64,000 nucleotides of DNA from the NCBI RefSeq assembly GCF_054482595.1, contig NZ_CM137008.1; one strand, 5' to 3'. Both the position numbers and the translations under genes were made by a program. The notes under the pieces were generated by a model. It had not been told where the DNA came from, made no database searches, and saw only the letters and a program-made list of their open reading frames with translations. Shown in pieces: positions 4,048-50,479 of this stretch; within the stretch, counting starts at the first letter, position 1, and every line of letters begins with the position of its first letter.

Positions 4048-4617
4048 ATGAGCCGATTCATCCCCATAGAATTACACCATGCCAGCCGTCTGTTAAATCA
4101 TGGCCCAACTGTCTTGATCACCAGTTTCGATGAGCAATCCCAGCGGCGTAACATTATGGCTGCAGCCTGGTCAATGCCGGTGGAGTTTGAACCTCCACGC
4201 GTGGCGATTGTGGTAGATAAATCGACATGGACCAGGGAGTTGATTGAACATAACGGTAAATTTGGCATCGTTATCCCGGGCGTTGCAGCAACTAACTGGA
4301 CGTGGGCAGTGGGAAGTGTATCTGGGCGTGAAGAAGATAAATTTAATTGCTACGGCATTCCGGTGGTGAAAGGTCCGGTGCTTGGTTTGCCACTTGTTGA
4401 AGAGAAATGCCTGGCGTGGATGGAGTGCCGCCTGCTACCTGCGACTTCTGCGCAACAAAAATACGACACGCTGTTTGGCGAGGTGGTATCAGCAGCGGCA
4501 GACGCACGGGTATTTGTCGAAGGCCGCTGGCAGTTTGATGATGATAAGCTCAATACGTTGCATCATTTAGGTGCTGGCACGTTTGTTACCAGCGGCAAGC
4601 GAGTTACGGCGGGTTAA
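4048..4617 (+). CDS. yddH: Flavin reductase-like protein
   Basis: ORF 4000..4617; start placed at the internal Met (MSRFIPIELHH) to give about 189 aa. Confidence 0.75.
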   Translation: MSRFIPIELHHASRLLNHGPTVLITSFDEQSQRRNIMAAAWSMPVEFEPPRVAIVVDKSTWTRELIEHNGKFGIVIPGVAATNWTWAVGSVSGREEDKFNCYGIPVVKGPVLGLPLVEEKCLAWMECRLLPATSAQQKYDTLFGEVVSAAADARVFVEGRWQFDDDKLNTLHHLGAGTFVTSGKRVTAG

Positions 4618-4620
4618 GCA

Positions 4621-4848
4621 TTACATGCTGTAACCGGGTTTCTTTATCAAAGCCTCCATTTGGGGCGCGATTTCGGCATCCCAGATAGCTTGCCATGATT
4701 CTGGTTGAATCTGCTGTAGAGAAATGCTTATCGAGCTATCTTTACTGTTCAGATGGCGAATAATAACGTCGGTAATATCTGCAGCAAGTGCTGCTTTTTG
4801 TTGTTCGTCCAGTTCACGCGGAAAACATTTAATGTCGATGTGCGGCAT
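4621..4848 (-). CDS. pptA: 4-oxalocrotonate tautomerase-family protein
   Basis: Start placed at MPHIDIK within ORF 4621..4962; N-terminal Pro1 after Met is typical of the tautomerase superfamily. Confidence 0.75.
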
Positions 4849-5283
4849 GATTACGCTCCTTTTGAAAGATGTCAGTAAAATTAACACACATTGTGAATGT
4901 CGTATGTCCGGTGATGCGTTTTTACGACAATAATGCCTGCTTGAAATTGTAGATATTTGCACTACACCCTTTTAAATAAAGCACCAACAAATCGTCAACT
5001 TGCAGAACATATTCTTCTGCCTACATACCATTAAGAAAACATCAAGTTCCCGACTTGCCAATTTATTAACGCCCATTATAGACGCTGAAACAAGCTACGG
5101 ACAAAGGAGATGCCAAAATTACCGGCAATGCAGAAAAACTCAACGAACCATGGCTCTTTACCACAGCAGCCGGGGTTGTTTGGGACCGACTTCCGACAGC
5201 AGATCCCGGTGGGCCTGCCACCATCTCTTCACAAGTTTATGCTTATTACATGCAAAACGTCCCGTTTTGCATCTTTGTGCCTA

Positions 5284-5400
5284 CGGCACACCGTGATCTT
5301 TCCCTGGTCCCTGTCCCGGATTGTAGTACCGGTGCCAGTTGTAGTGCAGTTCGGATTCGTCGTCATACTGCTAGCCCGGATGGCGGAGCAGTTGCTCTAG
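5284..5400 (-). pseudogene. Decayed fragment of an Rhs core end (orphan rhs remnant), interrupted by stops
   Basis: Minus-strand translation gives ...QYDDESELHYNWHRYYNPGQG..., resembling the Rhs core terminus [12 protein letters not shown]; stop codons on both sides; no intact downstream ORF. Confidence 0.5.
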
Positions 5401-5442
5401 TCACTCAGAATATTGTAATAGTGATAGAGTGCAGTGCCGGTT

Positions 5443-5856
5443 TCAATATCCTAACGCTGGTCTTTTGCCTGTATTAACTGATTTAGCTGGTTTGCTACAT
5501 ATTAATGCCTTCAGATTTTCCCTTTCCTTGTCTGTGATACTGTCACAAACCCTACTAGCCCATTCTACTTCACTCTTCTCCAGGCATTCTATTTTCTTAT
5601 TGCTCATTGTTCTAATGTTTGGTGTTGCATCTCCATTTAATAACATCCATGTTTCATTTTTCTTCATAAAACATCTTCCATTATGTTCAAAGATATTAGG
5701 TGTGAATATATTATCAGAATCCCATGTTACGACTTGCTCGAGGGCTATATTATCTTGATAGTCCATGCCAGCATTATAATAATCACAAGATATAATTATC
5801 ATGGAAATAATTATCATGGAAATAATTATCACTAATATCTTCCCAAGCATTTCCAT
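5443..5856 (-). CDS. Putative Rhs immunity protein, predicted lipoprotein
   Basis: 137-aa ORF whose ATG directly abuts the rhs stop codon; AT-rich; N-terminal hydrophobic segment ending in a lipobox-like IISC with Asp at +2. Confidence 0.55.
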   Translation of the reverse strand: MEMLGKILVIIISMIIISMIIISCDYYNAGMDYQDNIALEQVVTWDSDNIFTPNIFEHNGRCFMKKNETWMLLNGDATPNIRTMSNKKIECLEKSEVEWASRVCDSITDKERENLKALICSKPAKSVNTGKRPALGY

Positions 5857-8800
5857 TTACTTTACCTCTTGAAATTCAAATGGGAATCCAGTGAAAGGAC
5901 CTTTAGGCATAATATATCTTTGATATCCATAAAGCTCACCGAGCACTTGTAGGCTTATAGGCGCATTTGTATTCATAGAGGGGTTGTTAAACCCGCACGC
6001 CTCAAAAATCATGTTCGTTCGGCTAAAACAATTATTTAAAACAGGAAGAGGCCCGAGGTTAATAGTTTTTAGTTTTTTATTAAGGTCTATTGCCTTATTC
6101 ATCATACATTGTTCTTCTTCATCTGTTGTATCTATTATCCAAATCCAGGTATCTCTGCGGGATTGTATCTTTTTAAAATAATCAGAGACAGAGGCTCCCA
6201 TCTCATCCCCAGTTCCCGAACTCATTAATCCATATCGATTTGCCGCCGCAGCATGCCCAAAAGGATTATCAGGAACGGGGCCGTTACCTATTATCATAGT
6301 ACTAAGCCCTAATGGATCAACGTGTTGCACTGGATTCAGCGGATATTGGTACAGATTCCATCCCCCCTTCAGCCCTATCGGGTCCTGAGTGATATACCGC
6401 CCCTGCAACGGATCGTAGTACCGGTTCCGGTTGTAGTACAGCCCCGACTCCTTATCATACTGCTGCCCCGGCAGCCGGTACGGCTGGTGCAGGTGATGCG
6501 GGTTCTCCTCATTAAGCTGGTTGCCCCATTCATCATACTCCGCGCTCCACGCCGTATTGCCGTCTTCACTGATAAGCGCCAGCGGCAGGCCCCGGTGGTC
6601 GCAGTGGTAAAGATGAACTTTTCTCGCCGGTGTGTATTCCGGCTCCATCTGTCTGGCCAGTTGCTCCACCGTCAGCCCGCACTGCGCAAGCCACGCCCGG
6701 CTTTCACTGCTCACGCGGTCTGCCCGGATTTCTTCCTCCAGTCTGTCCAGCAGCCGCACCAGTTCAGCCGGAAATACCACGCCGTGCCCGTCCTCGCTCC
6801 CTTCCTGCTGCATCTTCTCCGCCAGGCTGCGGCGCTGCGCTTTCTCCCGCTCGCCGTTCTCTGTCTCGCCCCGGATGAGCGGCGTGAAGCTTCCCGGCTC
6901 GTATACCGTCTGGATACGTGTGGTGTCAGTCTGCACCGTCGTCAGCCTGTCGCCGTCCCACCCGTACCATGTCTCCTCCGGTTTACGCGACAGCGACATC
7001 CATCCCGTCAGGTCACGCCCGCGACGCCACACCCGTTTCGCCATTCGCCGTCCCAGCGGGTCGTAGAGGTAGCAGCTCTCGACCAGTGGCTCGCCATGCT
7101 GTATCCGCGTGTAGAACACCAGGCGGTGCTGGCTGTCGTAGTGATAGTGGTGGGTGCGCTCGTCGTGCATCCGGATAACCCCTTCCGGGATACGGTCCGT
7201 CTTCTCCGCCAGCCTGCCGTATTCATCGTAGCGGTAGACATAGTGCGCATCTTCCGCGATGCGGTTATCCGGCCACGCCGTGAAGGTGCTGTCCGGGTGC
7301 AGTTCCGGGTCCGGCAGCCGGTTTCCTGCCGGGTCCGTCGCATACGGGATATCGATATCCAGGTTCGCTGCCGTGGTGTGGACGCCCGTCAGCCTTCCCG
7401 TGCCGCTGTAACGGTACTCCCGGCTCTCCTGCGGGCCGCTGATGCGGATTAGCTGTCCGTTGTCGTTCCAGTCGTAGTCATGGTCAAGCTGCGGAAGGTT
7501 CAGGTGCCTGCTCCGGAGCTGGCCGCTGGTATTCCAGGCGGTGGCAAGTTCATATGCCTCCCCGCCGAAGCTGCGGGCCGTCTCACGGTGCAGCCGGTCC
7601 CGCGTGTACTCGACCAGCGGCGTTCCGCCCAGCTTCATCCCCGCAAGATAACCGCTGCCATACGTCAGCCACTCCACCCGCGGCAGGCTGTCCGGCGTGA
7701 CGCGGTTTGCCAGACCCTGTTCGTTGTATGCGTGCTCTGTCTCATGCTGCCACAGCAGTTCCCCCGTCTCCGGGTTATGCACCGTCTGGCGTTCGCCGGC
7801 CAGGCGACCCTTATCATCATAACCGTAATGCACCGCCACCTGATGGCCTTCGCTCAGGTGGCTGATGTCTGTCAGCCAGCCGTGGCCGTCATACTGCCAC
7901 TGCTCTGCCGGTTCACCGTTCACCGTGCGGTGAGTGATACGGTCCGATTCGTCGTAGTGCCAGAGGGTGACAAGTCCCTCATCCTCACTCTGTGTGAGTT
8001 TTCCGGTCAGGTCATAATGATAACGCTGCGTCCGCCCGTCAAAGCCGCCCTGCTGTACCAGGCGGTCCAGCGCATCGTAGCTGAAGTCGCTGTGACTGCC
8101 GTTCTCGTTGGTCAGGCTGATGACACGTCCGGCAGCATCGTACTCCATACTGCGCGTCAGCCCGCCCTGCGTGGTGCTGACCGCCTTTCCCCACGCATCG
8201 TACTGTGTCTCGCTCCGGTTGCCGTCCGGGGTGATAACGGCAGTCAGGTCGCCTGCGGCGTTGTATTCATACCGCGTTTCACGGCCCTGTGCGTCTTTCA
8301 CCGAGGTTAACCGGCCACGGTTGTCATAGCGGCGGTAAAGGCTGATGCCTTCCTCGCGGTGGACCGCCGTCATCTGGCCGAAGCGGTCGTATTCATAGCG
8401 GGTCTGGTAGCCCGAGCAGTCGGTGAACGCCAGCAACTGACCGTAGCGGCTCCACGTCATCTGCCGGGTGCTGCCCGTCGCATCTGTTGTCGTGGCCGGT
8501 AATTCACTGTGCGCATCATCATAGCGGTAGCGTACTGTCTCCCCGCTGCGCGATGTCTCCGTTACCAGCCTGTCCAGTTCATCATATGCCCGGCGGCTCT
8601 CCAGCCCGTCCGGGGACACCACCGCCGTCAGCTGGTTCCCGTCGTTATAGTAAAATTTCGTCTCCCGCCCGTCCGGTGTGGTGATGTCCGTGATATCGCC
8701 GGACACCACATTCAGACCGTACTCTGTCCGCCGTCCCGCCGCGTCCGTCTGCGCCGTGAGCCTTCCTGCCGCGTCATACCCGCTGTGCGTGACGCTGCCA

Positions 8801-12238: not shown

Positions 12239-13346
12239 AGCAACCTCCGTGAAAATGAATAATAATCCGCACATATTGCATGTACAACATGTCGGGCGGA
12301 TGAGATAAGCGAGTCGACATCTGGCGTTACCGGGGAATATCAGAAAAATGTCATGGTTATGTGATGATTTAGTCTGGGATTTTACTTCAGAGAAACGGGT
12401 GTCTGTTTAGTCAACAAAATAATCACAAACGCAACGGATGGGTTCTCGACGTTATTCACGACAGGCTCGTACATTACAGCGAGTAATAAAAAACCCGATA
12501 TGCAAAGTCAAACCAATATTCATAATGTCTTTTTATTCACAACAATAAATAATTTAATAACAATCATTGAAATGAATGATGATTTGTATAAGGAATATAC
12601 GCTACCGCCCCACCCTGATAACATGATCTGCACATTGCCATCTTAACGTCGTTAAACACTGGCTTAATAGTGGATATTTCAAATTAGGAATTTATTAAAT
12701 TCACCTGATGAATATCATAAGCAAATAGCATAGAAAATAATGACAACTCCCCCGAGGGGACCATTTCCAAAGCACTGCACCACCACCTGGTGCCCGGATG
12801 ATCTTGCTTCAGTGGTAAGAGTACCTGATTCATTGTTCCCAAAATGGTGTTTTCCCCTGCCCCTCCAATAATGTGCAGCTCTCACGTGATAATCTATTGA
12901 TTAGGTTATATTAAGAATCAATATTTAAAATACATCCATTTTCTTGAATAAATCAACATGTTTATTAATCAATTGCTGTTTTAGCTCTGACTCATCAAGC
13001 TCTCCATATTTGTCCTACAGATAATTGCGAATAAATACAGAGAACGCCATTTATCCTTTTAGCATACCTGCCGGATATTTTTATTTGTATTAATATTAAT
13101 TGCATCTCCAACTCCGAGCATATCCATCATTAAAAAAATTTTGAGATTATAGAATACCTGTGATAACAAGTGAAACATCTGCACAATGTGAATAGTTAGT
13201 TTCTTTTCAGAGGAAATGAAATAGACACGCTGAATGAAAGGGAGAGTGATATAAATTAAAAAACATAACGTGAATTTAATTAATTACGCCCATCATTGTG
13301 GATAAAGTTACTGAATAATAAATAACATAATCTTCTGGTATCCCAC

Positions 13347-30748: not shown

Positions 30749-30903
30749 TTAACTCAAACCGAGTTGTTTCAGGATTGCTTTACGCAGGAGTGACGCGGCA
30801 TGACACTGCGCCTCCCATGAAACCTGAGTTTCAAATGGTTGCGGCCATTCGCTACATCGACGCCCTGAGATTCGAGCCAACGTCTGAACTCGCTTTGTTT
30901 CAC
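30749..30903 (-). pseudogene. hicA: hicA toxin gene, apparently frameshifted
   Basis: From GTG at 30903 the frame encodes MKQSEFRRWLESQGVDVANGRNHLKLRFHGRRSVMPRHSC then stops after 44 codons at 30769; the HicA-like C-terminus LRKAILKQLGLS is in another frame ending at 30749. Confidence 0.5.
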
Positions 30904-35323: not shown

Positions 35324-36532
35324 TCAGGCTGTCGCCTGAATCATTTCGGTGGGTTCCTGCTTCAACGGGCGGCCTGACTGCACCATCTCTCCACAGGCAA
35401 GAACGGCGTGCCCCGCCGCTAAAATGTTACGAGCGCCATTTACATCGGCGTTCGCTGTATATCCACATACCTGGCATCTGAATTTACTTTGTGACAGGCG
35501 GTTCTCTTTCGCTGTATGACCACAGTACGCGCAACGCTGGCTTGTATACGCTGGCGGAACAGCAAGCACCTGACCGCCACGCCAGAGCTGCTTGTACTCA
35601 AGCTGGCGGTGCATTTCATACCAGCCCTGATCCAGTATCGAACGGTTTAAACCTGATTTTGCCCGGACATTGCGCCCCGGCTGGCTGACCGTACCCGCTG
35701 CTGACTTTGACATGTTGCTGACCTTCAAATCCTCAATGACTATCATTGCGTGGTTTTTGCTGACGGCCGTTGTGACTTTGTGAAGGTAGTCCCTGCGGAT
35801 ATTTGCGATACAGGAATGCAGTCGCTGTATTTTGCGTTTCTGCTTCTGCCAGTTGTTGCTGAATTTGACCTTGCGGCTTAACTGTCGCTGAAGTCTCGCC
35901 AGCGTCTTCTGGTTTTTCTGAAAACTGTTTACAGGCTCAAAGACTGTGCCATCTGACAGCGTGGCGAGTTTAGCCACGCCAGCATCCAGCCCGACCATTG
36001 ATGCTGAAGGGTGAGCCGGAGTGGATACTTCACTTTCTGTCTGAATACTGATGTACCACTTACCGCAGGACTGGCTGACAGTGACATTTTTCACAACACC
36101 CGTGACCTGACGGCTGTTCCGGTAGCGCATCCAGCCCAGTTTCGGCAGAAAAATACGGCTGTTTTCCTGATCGAGCTTAACGCCCTGCGGGTAGCGGAAT
36201 GCATCATTCTGTCCCCGCTTTTTGAATCGGGGAAAAGCAGCCCGCTTCCGGAAGAAGTTTTTGTAAGCCCGCTCAAGGTCTTTCAGTGACTGTTGCAATG
36301 GCTGTGAGGGAGAATCTTTAAGCCATTGCGTTTCAGTGGCATTTTTCCACTCAACCAGCCAGGAAGCCATTTTCCCGTAAGGGATGTATTTATTACCGGC
36401 CTCATGATTCTCATTCTGACGTGCCAGAGCACGATTGAAAACGAAACGACATGCGCCTGCGAAGCGCCTCATTTCACACTCCTGTTGACCACCTGGTCTT
36501 AACTGGAATTTAAATGCCTGTAATCGTTTCAC
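35324..36532 (-). CDS. insQ: TnpB (OrfB) IS200/IS605 accessory protein, RuvC-like with C-terminal zinc finger
   Basis: 402-aa ORF; C-terminal CAYCGH...CQVCG zinc finger and RuvC-like region. Confidence 0.8.
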
Positions 36533-36539
36533 AGGTCAA

Positions 36540-37046
36540 ATGATACTTTGGTCTGTGAAAAAAGAAACCGATATCCGGCGTGGAAGGCATTGTGTTTTCC
36601 TGATGCATGTTCACCTGGTCTTTGTCACCAGATACCGACGCCAGATTTTTGACCATGACGCGACAGAAAAACTACGCACTTACTTTTCAAATGTATGTGC
36701 TTATTTTGAAGCTGAACTGGTTGAAATGGATGGCGAACCAGATCACGTCCATTTGTTAATTAACTAACCTCCCAAACTGGCGATATCCAGTCTGGTAAAC
36801 AGCCTCAAAGGCGTATCGGGTAGGTTACTGCGACGAGATCGACCAGATATTGCAGTCAGGTATTACTACAAAGGCGTTTTGTGGAGTCCTGGCTATTTTG
36901 CCAGTAGCTGCGGAGGTGCGCCAATATCCGTCATCCGCCAATACATTGAACAACAGCAAACACCTGGTCAGGTGGAAAACCGCGCCTTATATCCCCGCCC
37001 TGAAGGATGGGGTTTTACGGCGCACCGGATAAAAAGCGCCATCTAA
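36540..37046 (+). pseudogene. IS200-type TnpA (Y1 transposase) interrupted by an in-frame TAA
   Basis: HVHLLIN-stop-PPKLAISSLVNSLKG...YYYKGVLWSPGYF: HuH motif and catalytic-Tyr region in one frame, split by TAA at 36765..36767. Confidence 0.65.
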
Positions 37047-46080: not shown

Positions 46081-47721
46081 TCACACCGTAGCGAAACTAA
46101 CTGGTTCACCCGCTCCGCGAGGTTCTGCCGACACAGAATGTTTGTGCAGACGGAATACATCCACCGCCTCAGTTAATCGTGCCGCCTGTTCTTCAAGGGA
46201 CACCGCCGCCGCTGAGGCCTCTTCTACCAGAGAAGCATTCTGTTGCGTCACCTTATCCATTTCAGAAATCGCCTGGCTAACCTGCGTTATGCCCCTACTT
46301 TGCTCATCCGAGGCGGCGGCAATTTCCTGCATGATATGTGTGACACTCGCGACGGCATCAACAATAGTGCTCATGGTTTTCCCGGCCGTTGCCACCTCAT
46401 CCGATCCCAGGTCAATTAACCTGACTGATTCACTGATCAAGCCTTCAATTTCTTTTGCCGCCTGGGCGCTGCGGCTTGCGAGTGTCCGTACTTCGCTGGC
46501 GACAACGGCAAATCCACGCCCTTGCTCACCCGCTCGCGCAGCTTCAACGGCAGCATTCAGTGCCAGAATATTCGTCTGGAAAGCAATACTGTTGATGACG
46601 GCGGTGATCTCAGAAATTTTCTTCGAACTCGTGGAGATAGCGCCCATCGTTTTTACTACACCGGAAACCGTCTGCCCGCCATCGCTGGCTTTAATAGAAG
46701 CCTCTTGCGCCAGTTTACTGGCATAATGCGCATTATCCGCATTCTGTTTCACCGTCGCAGTGAGTTGCTCCATGCTGGCGGCAGTTTGTTCAATTGCCGC
46801 CGCTTGTTCTTCGGTGCGAGATGAAAGGTCCGCATTGCCAGCGGAAATTTCGCTGGTGCCACGATAAATCTCTTCCGCGCCCTGTCGAACAGTCCCTACT
46901 GTCATCCCCAGTGAATGCTGCATTTGCTGTAAATGACGACTTAAGCGACCGATTTCATTACGACCCGCCGGTTCATCATTCATCGTCAGATCGCCACTGG
47001 CGATTTTTTCAATCCGTTGTGCGGCATGTTGCAGTGGACGAATGACGATCCGACGTAGCACCATAAATGTTATCAGCGTCATGACCAGGGCAAGCACAAA
47101 CGCGCCAATCATAAACATCCCACCCAGGCTGGTGCGCTGATGGGCCAGTTCCGCCAGTTGGTTGGCTCTGGTGCTACGTATCTTAACGGCTTTGTTCAAA
47201 ATATCGGTATAAGCATTATCCAGCGTTCGGATCTGCTCACTTTCATGATTGATAATCGCTTCAAACATGCCATTTTTGGCATATTTCATCATAGGTTGCA
47301 TACCCGTGATATAAGCCTGGAAGCGTTGATTTAATTCAGTGTCTAGGGCTTCATCAGCAGGTGTTTTCACCGGCCGATTCTGATAAGCACGATAACCTTG
47401 CTGCGACTGTTTAATCTCCGATTCGGCTTGCGTAATATTTCGCTTCATTGCTTCCATTTCCGCAATACGACTCGCAGCCCCGGCCTGAATCATATTGATC
47501 CGGGCTGAACGCAAAAAATCTGAACTGTTCGCTAACCCGGTCCGAATCTCAATCTCCGCAGTAACATCACGCTGATCGCGATCGGCCTGCCAGAGGAAAT
47601 AGCCAGCCAGGGCTGAACTTAATGCGAATAGAACTAAGATACCGCCTAGAATGCAGGCAAATAACGGAACCAACCTGATGTGATGCAAAAAACCTAATCG
47701 CTGTGAGGGAGTTGTATTCAT
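46081..47721 (-). CDS. trg: Methyl-accepting chemotaxis protein III (ribose/galactose sensor)
   Basis: 546-aa ORF; two transmembrane segments, HAMP and highly conserved MCP signalling domain. Confidence 0.9.
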
Positions 47722-48061
47722 TACCGTTGTCTCTCGTCCAGGTTTACTCCTGATAGAAAGTCATCGGCATTTGACGGTAATTACTTACGACTAAAAGCCT
47801 CTTTGCGTCACATTTTTACAACAATTATTGCAGAGAAGATTAATGCCATTGGAATGAAGAGAGTAACGAATGGTTAAACTGGCTAACCCGAATGACGAAA
47901 AATTCTGGAAAACAGCACGCAATTTCGTCAGGTGATTATTTTCGTCCCTAAGGAAACCACATAGGATGCTCACGGGTGCCTGAGACTTTCTGTTTTCAGG
48001 CTAACCGGGAATCAGAAAGACGAAGGCCCCGACCGATATTTCTATCAACCGAGGCCAACGA

Positions 48062-48269
<208 letters not shown>

Positions 48270-48340
48270 GGGCAAGCGCGGGGATTTTCCCCGCGCATCT
48301 GACTAGCAGATTCATTTTCTCATGGCACCCCTTTTACACT

Positions 48341-48514
48341 TCAGTTAGTGCATGTTTTTTTCGATGCACTAATAGAACCATCATTACAGACAAATTTGCC
48401 GCCTGCCGTACAGTGTGAGATCCCCCCTTTCGAACCAGAACAGGGTTTGCGCCCGGCATCGGCATAAAAGGAAACAAGCGTTCCCATAAACAAAATAAGT
48501 GCCAGTTTTTTCAT
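48341..48514 (-). CDS. ydcA: Small secreted protein YdcA (57 aa)
   Basis: Encodes MKKLALILFMGTLVSFYADA... with signal peptide; too short for the ORF track. Confidence 0.6.
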   Translation of the reverse strand: MKKLALILFMGTLVSFYADAGRKPCSGSKGGISHCTAGGKFVCNDGSISASKKTCTN

Positions 48515-48675
48515 ATAACCTCCATGGTTTATCGAATCTTATGTTCGATTTGAACGTTATACGCTGGTTTATTTTGATACCGTTGATGAGATCAAAGATC
48601 GGGTGAATTGATTAAAAATAAGGCAGATGGACGTATGGGCAAGGATTATGGTTTTATTTGTCATACAAATAAATA

Positions 48676-48739
48676 TAATAGGCGCTTCCGATGTAGACCC
48701 GTATTCTTCGCCTGTACCACGGGTCGGTTTTAGTACAGG
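48676..48739 (+). ncRNA. rydC: RydC small regulatory RNA
   Basis: tataat -10 at 48664..48669; transcript begins cttccgatgtagaccc...; terminator stem cgcctgtac/gtacaggcg followed by ttttcttt; convergent with cybB. Confidence 0.55.
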
Positions 48740-48758
48740 CGTTTTCTTTAAATATCCT

Positions 48759-49289
48759 TCAGGAACGTTTACGCGGCATCATGCGTAGAAGTGTGTTGTC
48801 CTTCCAGAAATAGTGGTGTGCCAGTGCAGCCGCAGCGTGCAACCCGATGAGAAAATATCCCAGATTCGCCAGCGTCTCATGCCACGACTTTAAGCTATCA
48901 ACCCGTTCGAAATTGGCCTCTGAAGCGTAAGGCATCGTCAAACCAAACACAAACCACGGGTTGCCCCGGTTATACATCATCACCAAACCAATCACTGGCA
49001 GCGCAATAAACAGGAGATAAATCACCAAATGTCCCAAATGCGCCAGTCCCGTCATCATCGGTTTCGGCTTAGGTATAATCGGCGGGGTTGGGTATTTCAG
49101 TCTTAACAAAAGACGAACCACCATCAGCACGAGAATTGAGATGCCACAGGAAACATGAATCATGTTGATGAGCGGCCGATCGCTACGTGGGAAGAAACCC
49201 CGAAACTCCATTGCGCAATACGCTGCGATAACCAGCAAAAAGACCAGCCAGTGAATGCTGATTTGTAACCTTGAGTATTTATTTTCCAT
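48759..49289 (-). CDS. cybB: Cytochrome b561
   Basis: ORF 48759..49325; start placed at MENKYSRLQISIHWLVF for 176 aa; haem-ligand histidines in membrane helices. Confidence 0.85.
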   Translation of the reverse strand: MENKYSRLQISIHWLVFLLVIAAYCAMEFRGFFPRSDRPLINMIHVSCGISILVLMVVRLLLRLKYPTPPIIPKPKPMMTGLAHLGHLVIYLLFIALPVIGLVMMYNRGNPWFVFGLTMPYASEANFERVDSLKSWHETLANLGYFLIGLHAAAALAHHYFWKDNTLLRMMPRKRS

Positions 49290-49477
49290 AACATTTCCTG
49301 CTTTAACATAATTTTCCGTTAACATAACGGGCTTTTCTCAAAATTTCATTAAATATTGTTCACCCGTTTTCAGTACGTTACGTTTCACTGTAAGAATGGA
49401 GATTGCCCATCCCACAATCCTGGGCTAAGCCTGGAAAGGATCAATTTTCATCCGAACGTTCCTGACAGGAGAAAACC

Positions 49478-50479
49478 ATGAGTAAAGTTGGTATTAACGG
49501 TTTTGGTCGTATCGGTCGACTGGTGTTGCGTCGATTACTTGAAGTCAAAAGCAACATAGACGTTGTCGCTATTAATGATCTTACTTCCCCAAAAATTCTC
49601 GCCTATCTGCTGAAACATGATTCAAACTATGGTCCGTTCCCCTGGAGCGTTGATTTTACGGAAGATTCACTTATCGTTGATGGGAAAAGTATCTCGGTTT
49701 ACGCCGAAAAAGAGGCTAAAAATATTCCGTGGAAAGCGAAAGGTGCAGAAATCATTGTCGAATGTACTGGCTTTTATACCTCCGCCGATAAATCGCAGGC
49801 GCATCTTGATGCTGGTGCGAAGAAGGTGTTGATTTCCGCTCCTGCCGGTGAAATGAAAACCATCGTTTATAACGTTAATGACGACACTCTGGATGGCAAC
49901 GATACCATTGTTTCCGTGGCGTCATGCACCACTAACTGCCTTGCGCCGATGGCCAAAGCCTTGCATGACAGTTTCGGGATAGAAGTCGGCACGATGACGA
50001 CCATTCATGCCTATACTGGCACCCAGTCACTGGTGGATGGCCCGCATGGTAAAGATTTACGTGCTTCACGCGCCGCGGCAGAAAATATCATTCCCCACAC
50101 TACGGGCGCGGCAAAAGCCATTGGTCTGGTGATCCCGGAACTGAGCGGCAAACTGAAAGGTCATGCGCAACGCGTGCCGGTGAAAACAGGTTCGGTCACT
50201 GAACTGGTATCGATTCTCGGAAAAAAAGTGACTGCCGAAGAGGTGAATAACGCACTTAAACAAGCAACCACCAATAACGAGTCATTTGGTTATACCGATG
50301 AAGAAATAGTCTCTTCCGATATCATTGGCAGCCATTTCGGTTCGGTGTTTGATGCCACGCAAACGGAAATTACCGCCGTGGGCGATTTACAACTGGTGAA
50401 AACGGTCGCCTGGTACGATAACGAATATGGCTTCGTCACGCAGCTTATTCGCACCCTCGAAAAATTCGCTAAACTCTGA
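49478..50479 (+). CDS. gapC: Glyceraldehyde-3-phosphate dehydrogenase C, uninterrupted
   Basis: Continuous 333-aa ORF with NAD-binding GFGRIGR and active-site SCTTNC. Confidence 0.85.

Follow-up and report, generated by a model that had tools for sequence, protein, structure and literature searches.

RydC, a trans-acting small RNA of enterobacteria that depends on Hfq, was characterised from 2003-2005 onwards, and its complex with Hfq has been crystallised. The crystal structure with Hfq revealed the three-dimensional pseudoknot fold of the RNA, which is destabilised by mutation of G37 or G39 (PMC4337610). Base-pairing of the RydC seed at an RNase E site on the long isoform of the cfa mRNA stabilises that transcript; the compensatory changes RydC C4G and cfa G101C have confirmed the pairing, and cells with a mutated rydC are sensitive to acid (PMC6755755). 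A second effect is on Rho-dependent termination in the cfa leader, which RydC counteracts; OmrB antagonises RydC (PMC11340327).

The control of the gene itself was described more recently. Bianco et al. (2024, PMC11340327) described a sigma-70 promoter that has a perfect TATAAT but lacks an obvious -35 element. Their genetic data showed about 20-fold repression of rydC by YieP, a regulator of the GntR family, and RydC appeared on a northern blot only in a yieP deletion strain. In the same work, rydC borders cybB and runs convergently to it, and in E. coli and Shigella its 5' neighbour is ydcA (PMC11340327). A YieP motif derived by ChIP-exo has been published as atTTGTaTGAcaAAT; in a yieP deletion, no operons are de-repressed more strongly than ykgEFG and yohJK (PMC7642389).

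Here we compare with these systems a locus in 64,000 nucleotides of contig NZ_CM137008.1 (RefSeq assembly GCF_054482595.1), hereafter the window. The RNA itself is not new; the sole increment of the present analysis would be the location, to the base, of a probable YieP operator in its promoter, together with the distribution of the operator alleles.

Identity and setting of the gene

The whole window was searched with Rfam 15 at gathering thresholds. The plus strand at 48685..48748 matched RydC (RF00505) over model positions 1-64 of 64, scoring 92.5 bits (E = 5e-17), almost twice the gathering score of 48. When 48250..48900 was searched permissively (E <= 1, both strands), RydC remained the sole match. 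The curated K-12 gene rydC (b4597) aligns to 48685..48749, 65 nt, and the 64 nt of RydC are identical in K-12 without exception. The gene order ydcA-rydC-cybB is that of K-12 and agrees with the published synteny. The sequence-only reading had proposed RydC for a 64-nt unit lying between ydcA and cybB and convergent with the latter, and the covariance-model match, the K-12 identity and the flanking genes bear it out in each of these respects. We are close to certain that this interval is the gene for RydC.

The interval first proposed for the unit was 48676..48739, which has the correct length but must be moved by +9 nt. As proposed, it would begin within the TATAAT and end within the 3' arm of the terminator stem. 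It also contradicts the accompanying remark that the -10 box lies about 7 bp upstream, which points to a 9-nt counting slip. The sequence around the gene runs ...ATTTGTCATACAAATAAATATAATAGGCG, then CTTCCGATGTAGACCCGTATTCTTCGCCTGTACCACGGGTCGGTTTTAGTACAGGCGTTTTCTT, then T..., and its features are collected in Table 1.

Table 1. Positions of the rydC gene, its parts and its neighbours in the window (RydC numbering: C48685 = nt 1)
Feature	Position	Strand	Role or basis
trg	46081..47721	-	Neighbour in the window
sokB/hokB/mokB	47974..48269	+	Type I toxin-antitoxin locus; Rfam sok, 109.7 bits; known K-12 genes
ydcA, 57-aa periplasmic protein	48341..48514	-	Divergent upstream neighbour; ORF list and RefSeq annotation
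Perfect 6-3-6 palindrome ATTTGT-CAT-ACAAAT (ATTTGTCATACAAAT)	48656..48670 (-29..-15)	.	Probable YieP operator
-10 box TATAAT	48674..48679 (-11..-6)	+	Sigma-70 rydC promoter; read from the sequence
RydC sRNA, 64 nt	48685..48748	+	RF00505 and K-12 identity
Single-stranded 5' seed, nt 1-12, CUUCCGAUGUAG	48685..48696	+	nt 3-12 pair with cfa mRNA
S1 5' arm, nt 12-18, GACCCGU	48696..48702	+	Pairs with nt 35-41
U23/U24 step, loop I	48707..48708	+	Hfq lateral-surface contact (role: PMC4337610)
S2/terminator stem 5' arm, nt 25-33, CGCCUGUAC	48709..48717	+	Within the S1 loop; MFE and centroid fold
S1 3' arm, nt 35-41, ACGGGUC	48719..48725	+	Contains G37 and G39
U46/U47 step, loop II	48730..48731	+	Hfq lateral-surface contact (role: PMC4337610)
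S2/terminator stem 3' arm, nt 49-57, GUACAGGCG	48733..48741	+	Folding and ortholog alignment
U-tail UUUUCUU	48742..48748	+	Terminator T-run and Hfq proximal-face site (sequence; RydC-Hfq crystal structure, PMC4337610)
cybB, cytochrome b561 / superoxide oxidase	48759..49289	-	Convergent neighbour of rydC

The intergenic region between ydcA and cybB is identical to that of K-12 at 244 of 246 positions. Both differences lie upstream of the gene: position 48623 is G here and C in K-12, and position 48660 is G here and A in K-12. The window is E. coli DNA. A 281-nt query around the locus matched 5,415 of 5,426 complete E. coli genomes and was 100% identical in strain XH990, from which the first 50 kb of the window differ at only 7 positions. 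RydC is single-copy in 5,411 of the 5,426 genomes, and in 4,063 it is 100% identical. Five apparent plasmid copies of the locus were set aside, three being mislabelled chromosomes of 4.8-4.9 Mb and two being large non-mobilizable records, and they give no evidence of mobility. The PGAP-annotated RefSeq E. coli genomes carry no rydC feature at the match site, and only the curated K-12 record annotates the gene. Given that PGAP does not annotate it, the recovery of rydC from sequence alone is a useful sanity check of the scan.

Beyond cybB, gapC and aldA follow as further neighbours in the window. The mechanical ORF of cybB (48759-49325, minus strand) has 188 aa from an ATG at 49325, and the RefSeq protein has 176 aa from 49289, a start-codon ambiguity only. 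The gapC gene (49478-50479, plus strand) is an intact 333-aa ORF, for which XH990 carries the annotation type I GAPDH; the K-12 copy is a pseudogene. On the other side of the locus, yncP, also a known K-12 gene, is annotated antisense at 48247-48315 near sokB/hokB/mokB.

Several elements elsewhere in the window were recorded in passing. An isolated group II intron D1-D4-2 match (5117-5222, minus strand, 49.2 bits) sits between pptA and a hypothetical ORF that lies downstream of an RHS core protein and VgrG, in a stretch where XH990 has no annotated feature. No other intron domain was found within 4600-6000, and the match is probably an intron remnant in an Rhs/T6SS island. The XH990 annotation further places a frameshifted hicA beside an intact hicB at 30749-30903, and at 35324-37046 an IS200/IS605 unit whose tnpA contains an internal stop and whose insQ (TnpB-family) is intact.

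Promoter and candidate YieP operator

The sequence-only reading had noted a near-consensus -10 element about 7 bp upstream of the unit. The element is a perfect TATAAT, and 5 nt separate it from +1. A -10 box a short way upstream and a terminator at the 3' end suit the corrected interval and not the one first proposed. Across 10 promoters from Escherichia, Salmonella and Citrobacter, the column identity of the -10 box is 98%. In the Citrobacter koseri rydC promoter the box reads TATACT, not TATAAT. A consensus promoter scan returned no two-hexamer promoter, because no -35 element is recognisable, in agreement with Bianco et al. (PMC11340327). A missing transcript of about 64 nt in a wild-type strain under standard conditions would not overturn the identification as RydC, since YieP represses the gene about 20-fold and northern detection succeeded only in the yieP deletion.

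Immediately upstream of the -10 box lies a perfect palindrome, whose minus strand agrees with the published YieP motif at 15 of 15 positions; it is the sole zero-mismatch site in the 64 kb window. When positions -60..+10 were aligned for 10 genomes of three genera, the palindrome showed a column identity of 96%, against 56% for -60..-30. The element is thus kept across Escherichia, Salmonella and Citrobacter. In C. koseri (L007:8632-8646) the same 15-mer occurs with the central triplet flipped, ATTTGTATGACAAAT. In K-12, the identical 15 nt recur upstream of ykgE, with their end 117 nt ahead of its ATG, and a version of the motif with 3 mismatches lies 24-38 nt upstream of yohJ.

It could be argued that RydC is real and that the palindrome nevertheless belongs to another regulator, or forms part of the divergent ydcA promoter. 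The element is 142-156 nt from the start codon of ydcA, on its upstream side, and could serve that gene too. In addition, Bianco et al. stated that RegulonDB holds no known transcription-factor site for rydC and that the 2018 ChIP-exo regulon does not include it (PMC11340327), so that the assignment to YieP rests on the motif match and the alignment. However, the motif that the palindrome matches in full was derived independently, the same 15-mer precedes the strongly de-repressed ykgE, and a position of -29..-15 is typical of a repressor. ChIP-exo with 3-HP (Nguyen-Vo et al.) moreover listed both rydC and ydcA as YieP targets; the text and supplement of that study give no coordinates for the peak near rydC (PMC7642389). 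The alternative is, in our judgement, unlikely, and the palindrome is very probably the operator through which YieP represses rydC. Seated at this site, the GntR/FadR-type repressor would occlude RNA polymerase at the core promoter.

One of the two differences from K-12 falls within the palindrome. The K-12 allele, ATTTATCATACAAAT, carries A at 48660 and has one half-site mismatch. As computed from the alignment, the site corresponds to K-12 positions 1,491,521..1,491,535. Searches with allele-specific 35-mers found the perfect palindrome in 3,971 (about 73%) and the K-12 form in 1,237 (about 23%) of the 5,426 complete E. coli genomes. The placement of the operator, with K-12 carrying a minority imperfect allele, would link the ChIP-exo motif of 2020 to the YieP-rydC genetics of 2024. 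One may go further and propose that the palindrome is a YieP operator whose natural polymorphism makes RydC levels, and through them the activation of cfa, differ between lineages. We regard this as a tentative and unlikely proposal; if true, silencing of rydC in most E. coli would be tighter than measurements based on K-12 suggest.

The motif was also traced at other sites. The K-12 yieP region contains no site with up to 3 mismatches, so autoregulation is not explained by this consensus. The window contains 6 motif matches with up to 3 mismatches, against a chance expectation of 2.3 +/- 1.5, and 2 of 100 shuffles reached 6. A match with 2 mismatches, ATCTGTAGGACAAAT, lies at 13008-13022 on the minus strand, between yncH and vgrG.

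Architecture of the RNA

The two helices of the published pseudoknot can be traced in the window base by base. All 16 pairs of S1 and S2 form, and the 5' arm of S2 lies in the loop of S1, the arrangement of an H-type pseudoknot. The 5' seed, CUUCCGAUGU, is the same as in the Rfam consensus and in K-12. At their published numbering, the window also has U23U24, G37/G39, U46U47 and the UUUUCUU tail. On its own, S1 has a free energy of -10.5 kcal/mol and S2, a 9-bp stem with a 15-nt loop, one of -13.8 kcal/mol. The stem and the UUUUCUU that follows it close the 64-nt unit, in keeping with the intrinsic terminator that had been read at its 3' end. For the identical sequence, crystallography and half-life assays have established Hfq binding and Hfq-dependent stability (PMC4337610), and the sequence determinants of that binding (hairpin, 3' U-tail and UU steps) are all present here.

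Standard predictors respond poorly to this architecture. The MFE fold of RydC recovers S2 only, and its z-score of -0.48 makes it no more stable than shuffled sequences. This result is expected, since a pseudoknot is not representable in nested folding, and for a pseudoknotted RNA such as RydC the MFE stability can neither flag nor confirm the element. S2 escaped the consensus terminator scan because that scan allows loops of up to 8 nt and the S2 loop has 15. What the terminator scan returned instead, a weak hairpin spanning 48710..48724 and two sites at chance level within cybB and ydcA, was not used.

Comparative evidence was drawn from an alignment of the window with 9 orthologs from Escherichia, Salmonella and Citrobacter. 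The ortholog pattern search had yielded 13 loci, of which 3 were chance matches in unrelated MAGs and 1, from Salmonella, was too short to score; the Klebsiella and Enterobacter orthologs were not retrieved by this pattern. All aligned sequences form 7 of 7 pairs in S1 and 9 of 9 in S2. The pseudoknot cells pair in register in 100% of cases, against 27-47% when the partners are slid, and 4 of the 9 S2 pairs show compensatory double changes across genera. S1 is invariant among the aligned orthologs. Because the search pattern fixed nt 1-10 and 12-18, the lack of variation between genera in the seed and in the S1 5' arm is no independent evidence.

Within E. coli, S1 varies only to G·U wobbles: the common A13G and the rarer A35G turn A-U and U-A into G·U and U·G, and the helix stays paired. 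Among three sampled strains (L021-L023: E. coli EcPNK004, VTB96933v and WL297), two have A13G as a one-mismatch RydC variant. The RydC of WL297 additionally carries U20C, C22U and A35G, and its stem changes all keep pairing. The 95-99% RydC identity band holds 1,346 E. coli genomes.

A rival view would hold that the hairpin and U-run merely terminate cybB, or belong to its 3'-UTR, on the other strand, and that there is no independent sRNA gene here. The two genes are convergent, the cybB stop codon lies 10 nt past the 3' end of RydC, and the S2 hairpin would form on either strand. On the minus strand, however, the hairpin is followed by AAGAAUACGGG, without a U-run, and the plus-strand unit has its own conserved TATAAT. 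The covariance-model match is also full-length and includes the 5' 24 nt, which lie outside the hairpin, and the identical sequence in K-12 is an experimentally detected, Hfq-bound RNA (PMC11340327, PMC4337610). We give this view practically no credence. Nor is there any appreciable chance that the region encodes a small protein from the overlapping plus-strand ORFs of 41 aa (48608..48733) and 53 aa (48627..48788), for although both stand in the six-frame list, they begin ahead of the mapped +1 and the -10 box, which leaves them off the RydC transcript, the variation across genera is compensatory in the RNA helices and comes with 1-nt frame-shifting indels, and the curated K-12 record annotates no gene at either.

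The cfa target and comparison with known systems

RydC as placed here retains the pairing with its target cfa. Nucleotides 3-12 pair with positions -108..-99 of K-12 cfa (UACGUCGGAU..., on GG/AUU) in 10 pairs, one of them G·U. This duplex has a predicted energy of -15.2 kcal/mol, which 0.4% of 2000 shuffled seeds equal, and it covers the mapped RNase E site. The cfa gene lies outside the window; a 35-mer with the target site is exact in 5,420 of the 5,426 E. coli genomes. The duplex of full-length RydC with the cfa leader (-39.7 kcal/mol) was discarded as meaningless, since it ignores the intramolecular structure, and the seed-only duplex was used instead.

Published work on the identical K-12 sequence and on the Salmonella ortholog suggests how the gene would act. 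Transcription would start at C48685 from the sigma-70 promoter with its perfect TATAAT and no -35, and would end at the S2 hairpin and U-run. The RNA would then fold into a compact H-type pseudoknot (S1, nt 12-18/35-41; S2, nt 25-33/49-57), and Hfq would hold the 3' U-tail in its proximal pore and U23U24 and U46U47 on its rim, leaving the 5' seed free. The seed would pair with the long, sigma-70-dependent cfa isoform at about -108..-99, mask the RNase E site GG/AUU and counter Rho-dependent termination. The resulting increase in CFA synthase would cyclopropanate the membrane lipids and raise acid resistance. RydC would also modestly repress yejABEF, csgD, pheA and trpE, with OmrB as its antagonist.

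To conclude, the locus can be set beside known systems at both of its levels. At the promoter, the rydC site shares the 15-mer ATTTGTCATACAAAT with the ykgE operator and fits the YieP consensus atTTGTaTGAcaAAT. In contrast to the YieP operators of ykgEFG and yohJK, the site at rydC would lie inside the core promoter of an sRNA, between the -35 position and the -10 box. At the RNA level, the site of ArrS on cfa overlaps that of RydC (PMC6755755). RydC also resembles other Hfq-dependent 5'-seed sRNAs that block RNase E or Rho, whose seed binds inside a long 5' UTR and makes the mRNA more stable. It is unusual among them in that its terminator hairpin forms part of an H-type pseudoknot, as one of the two helices, and is not a simple stem-loop.
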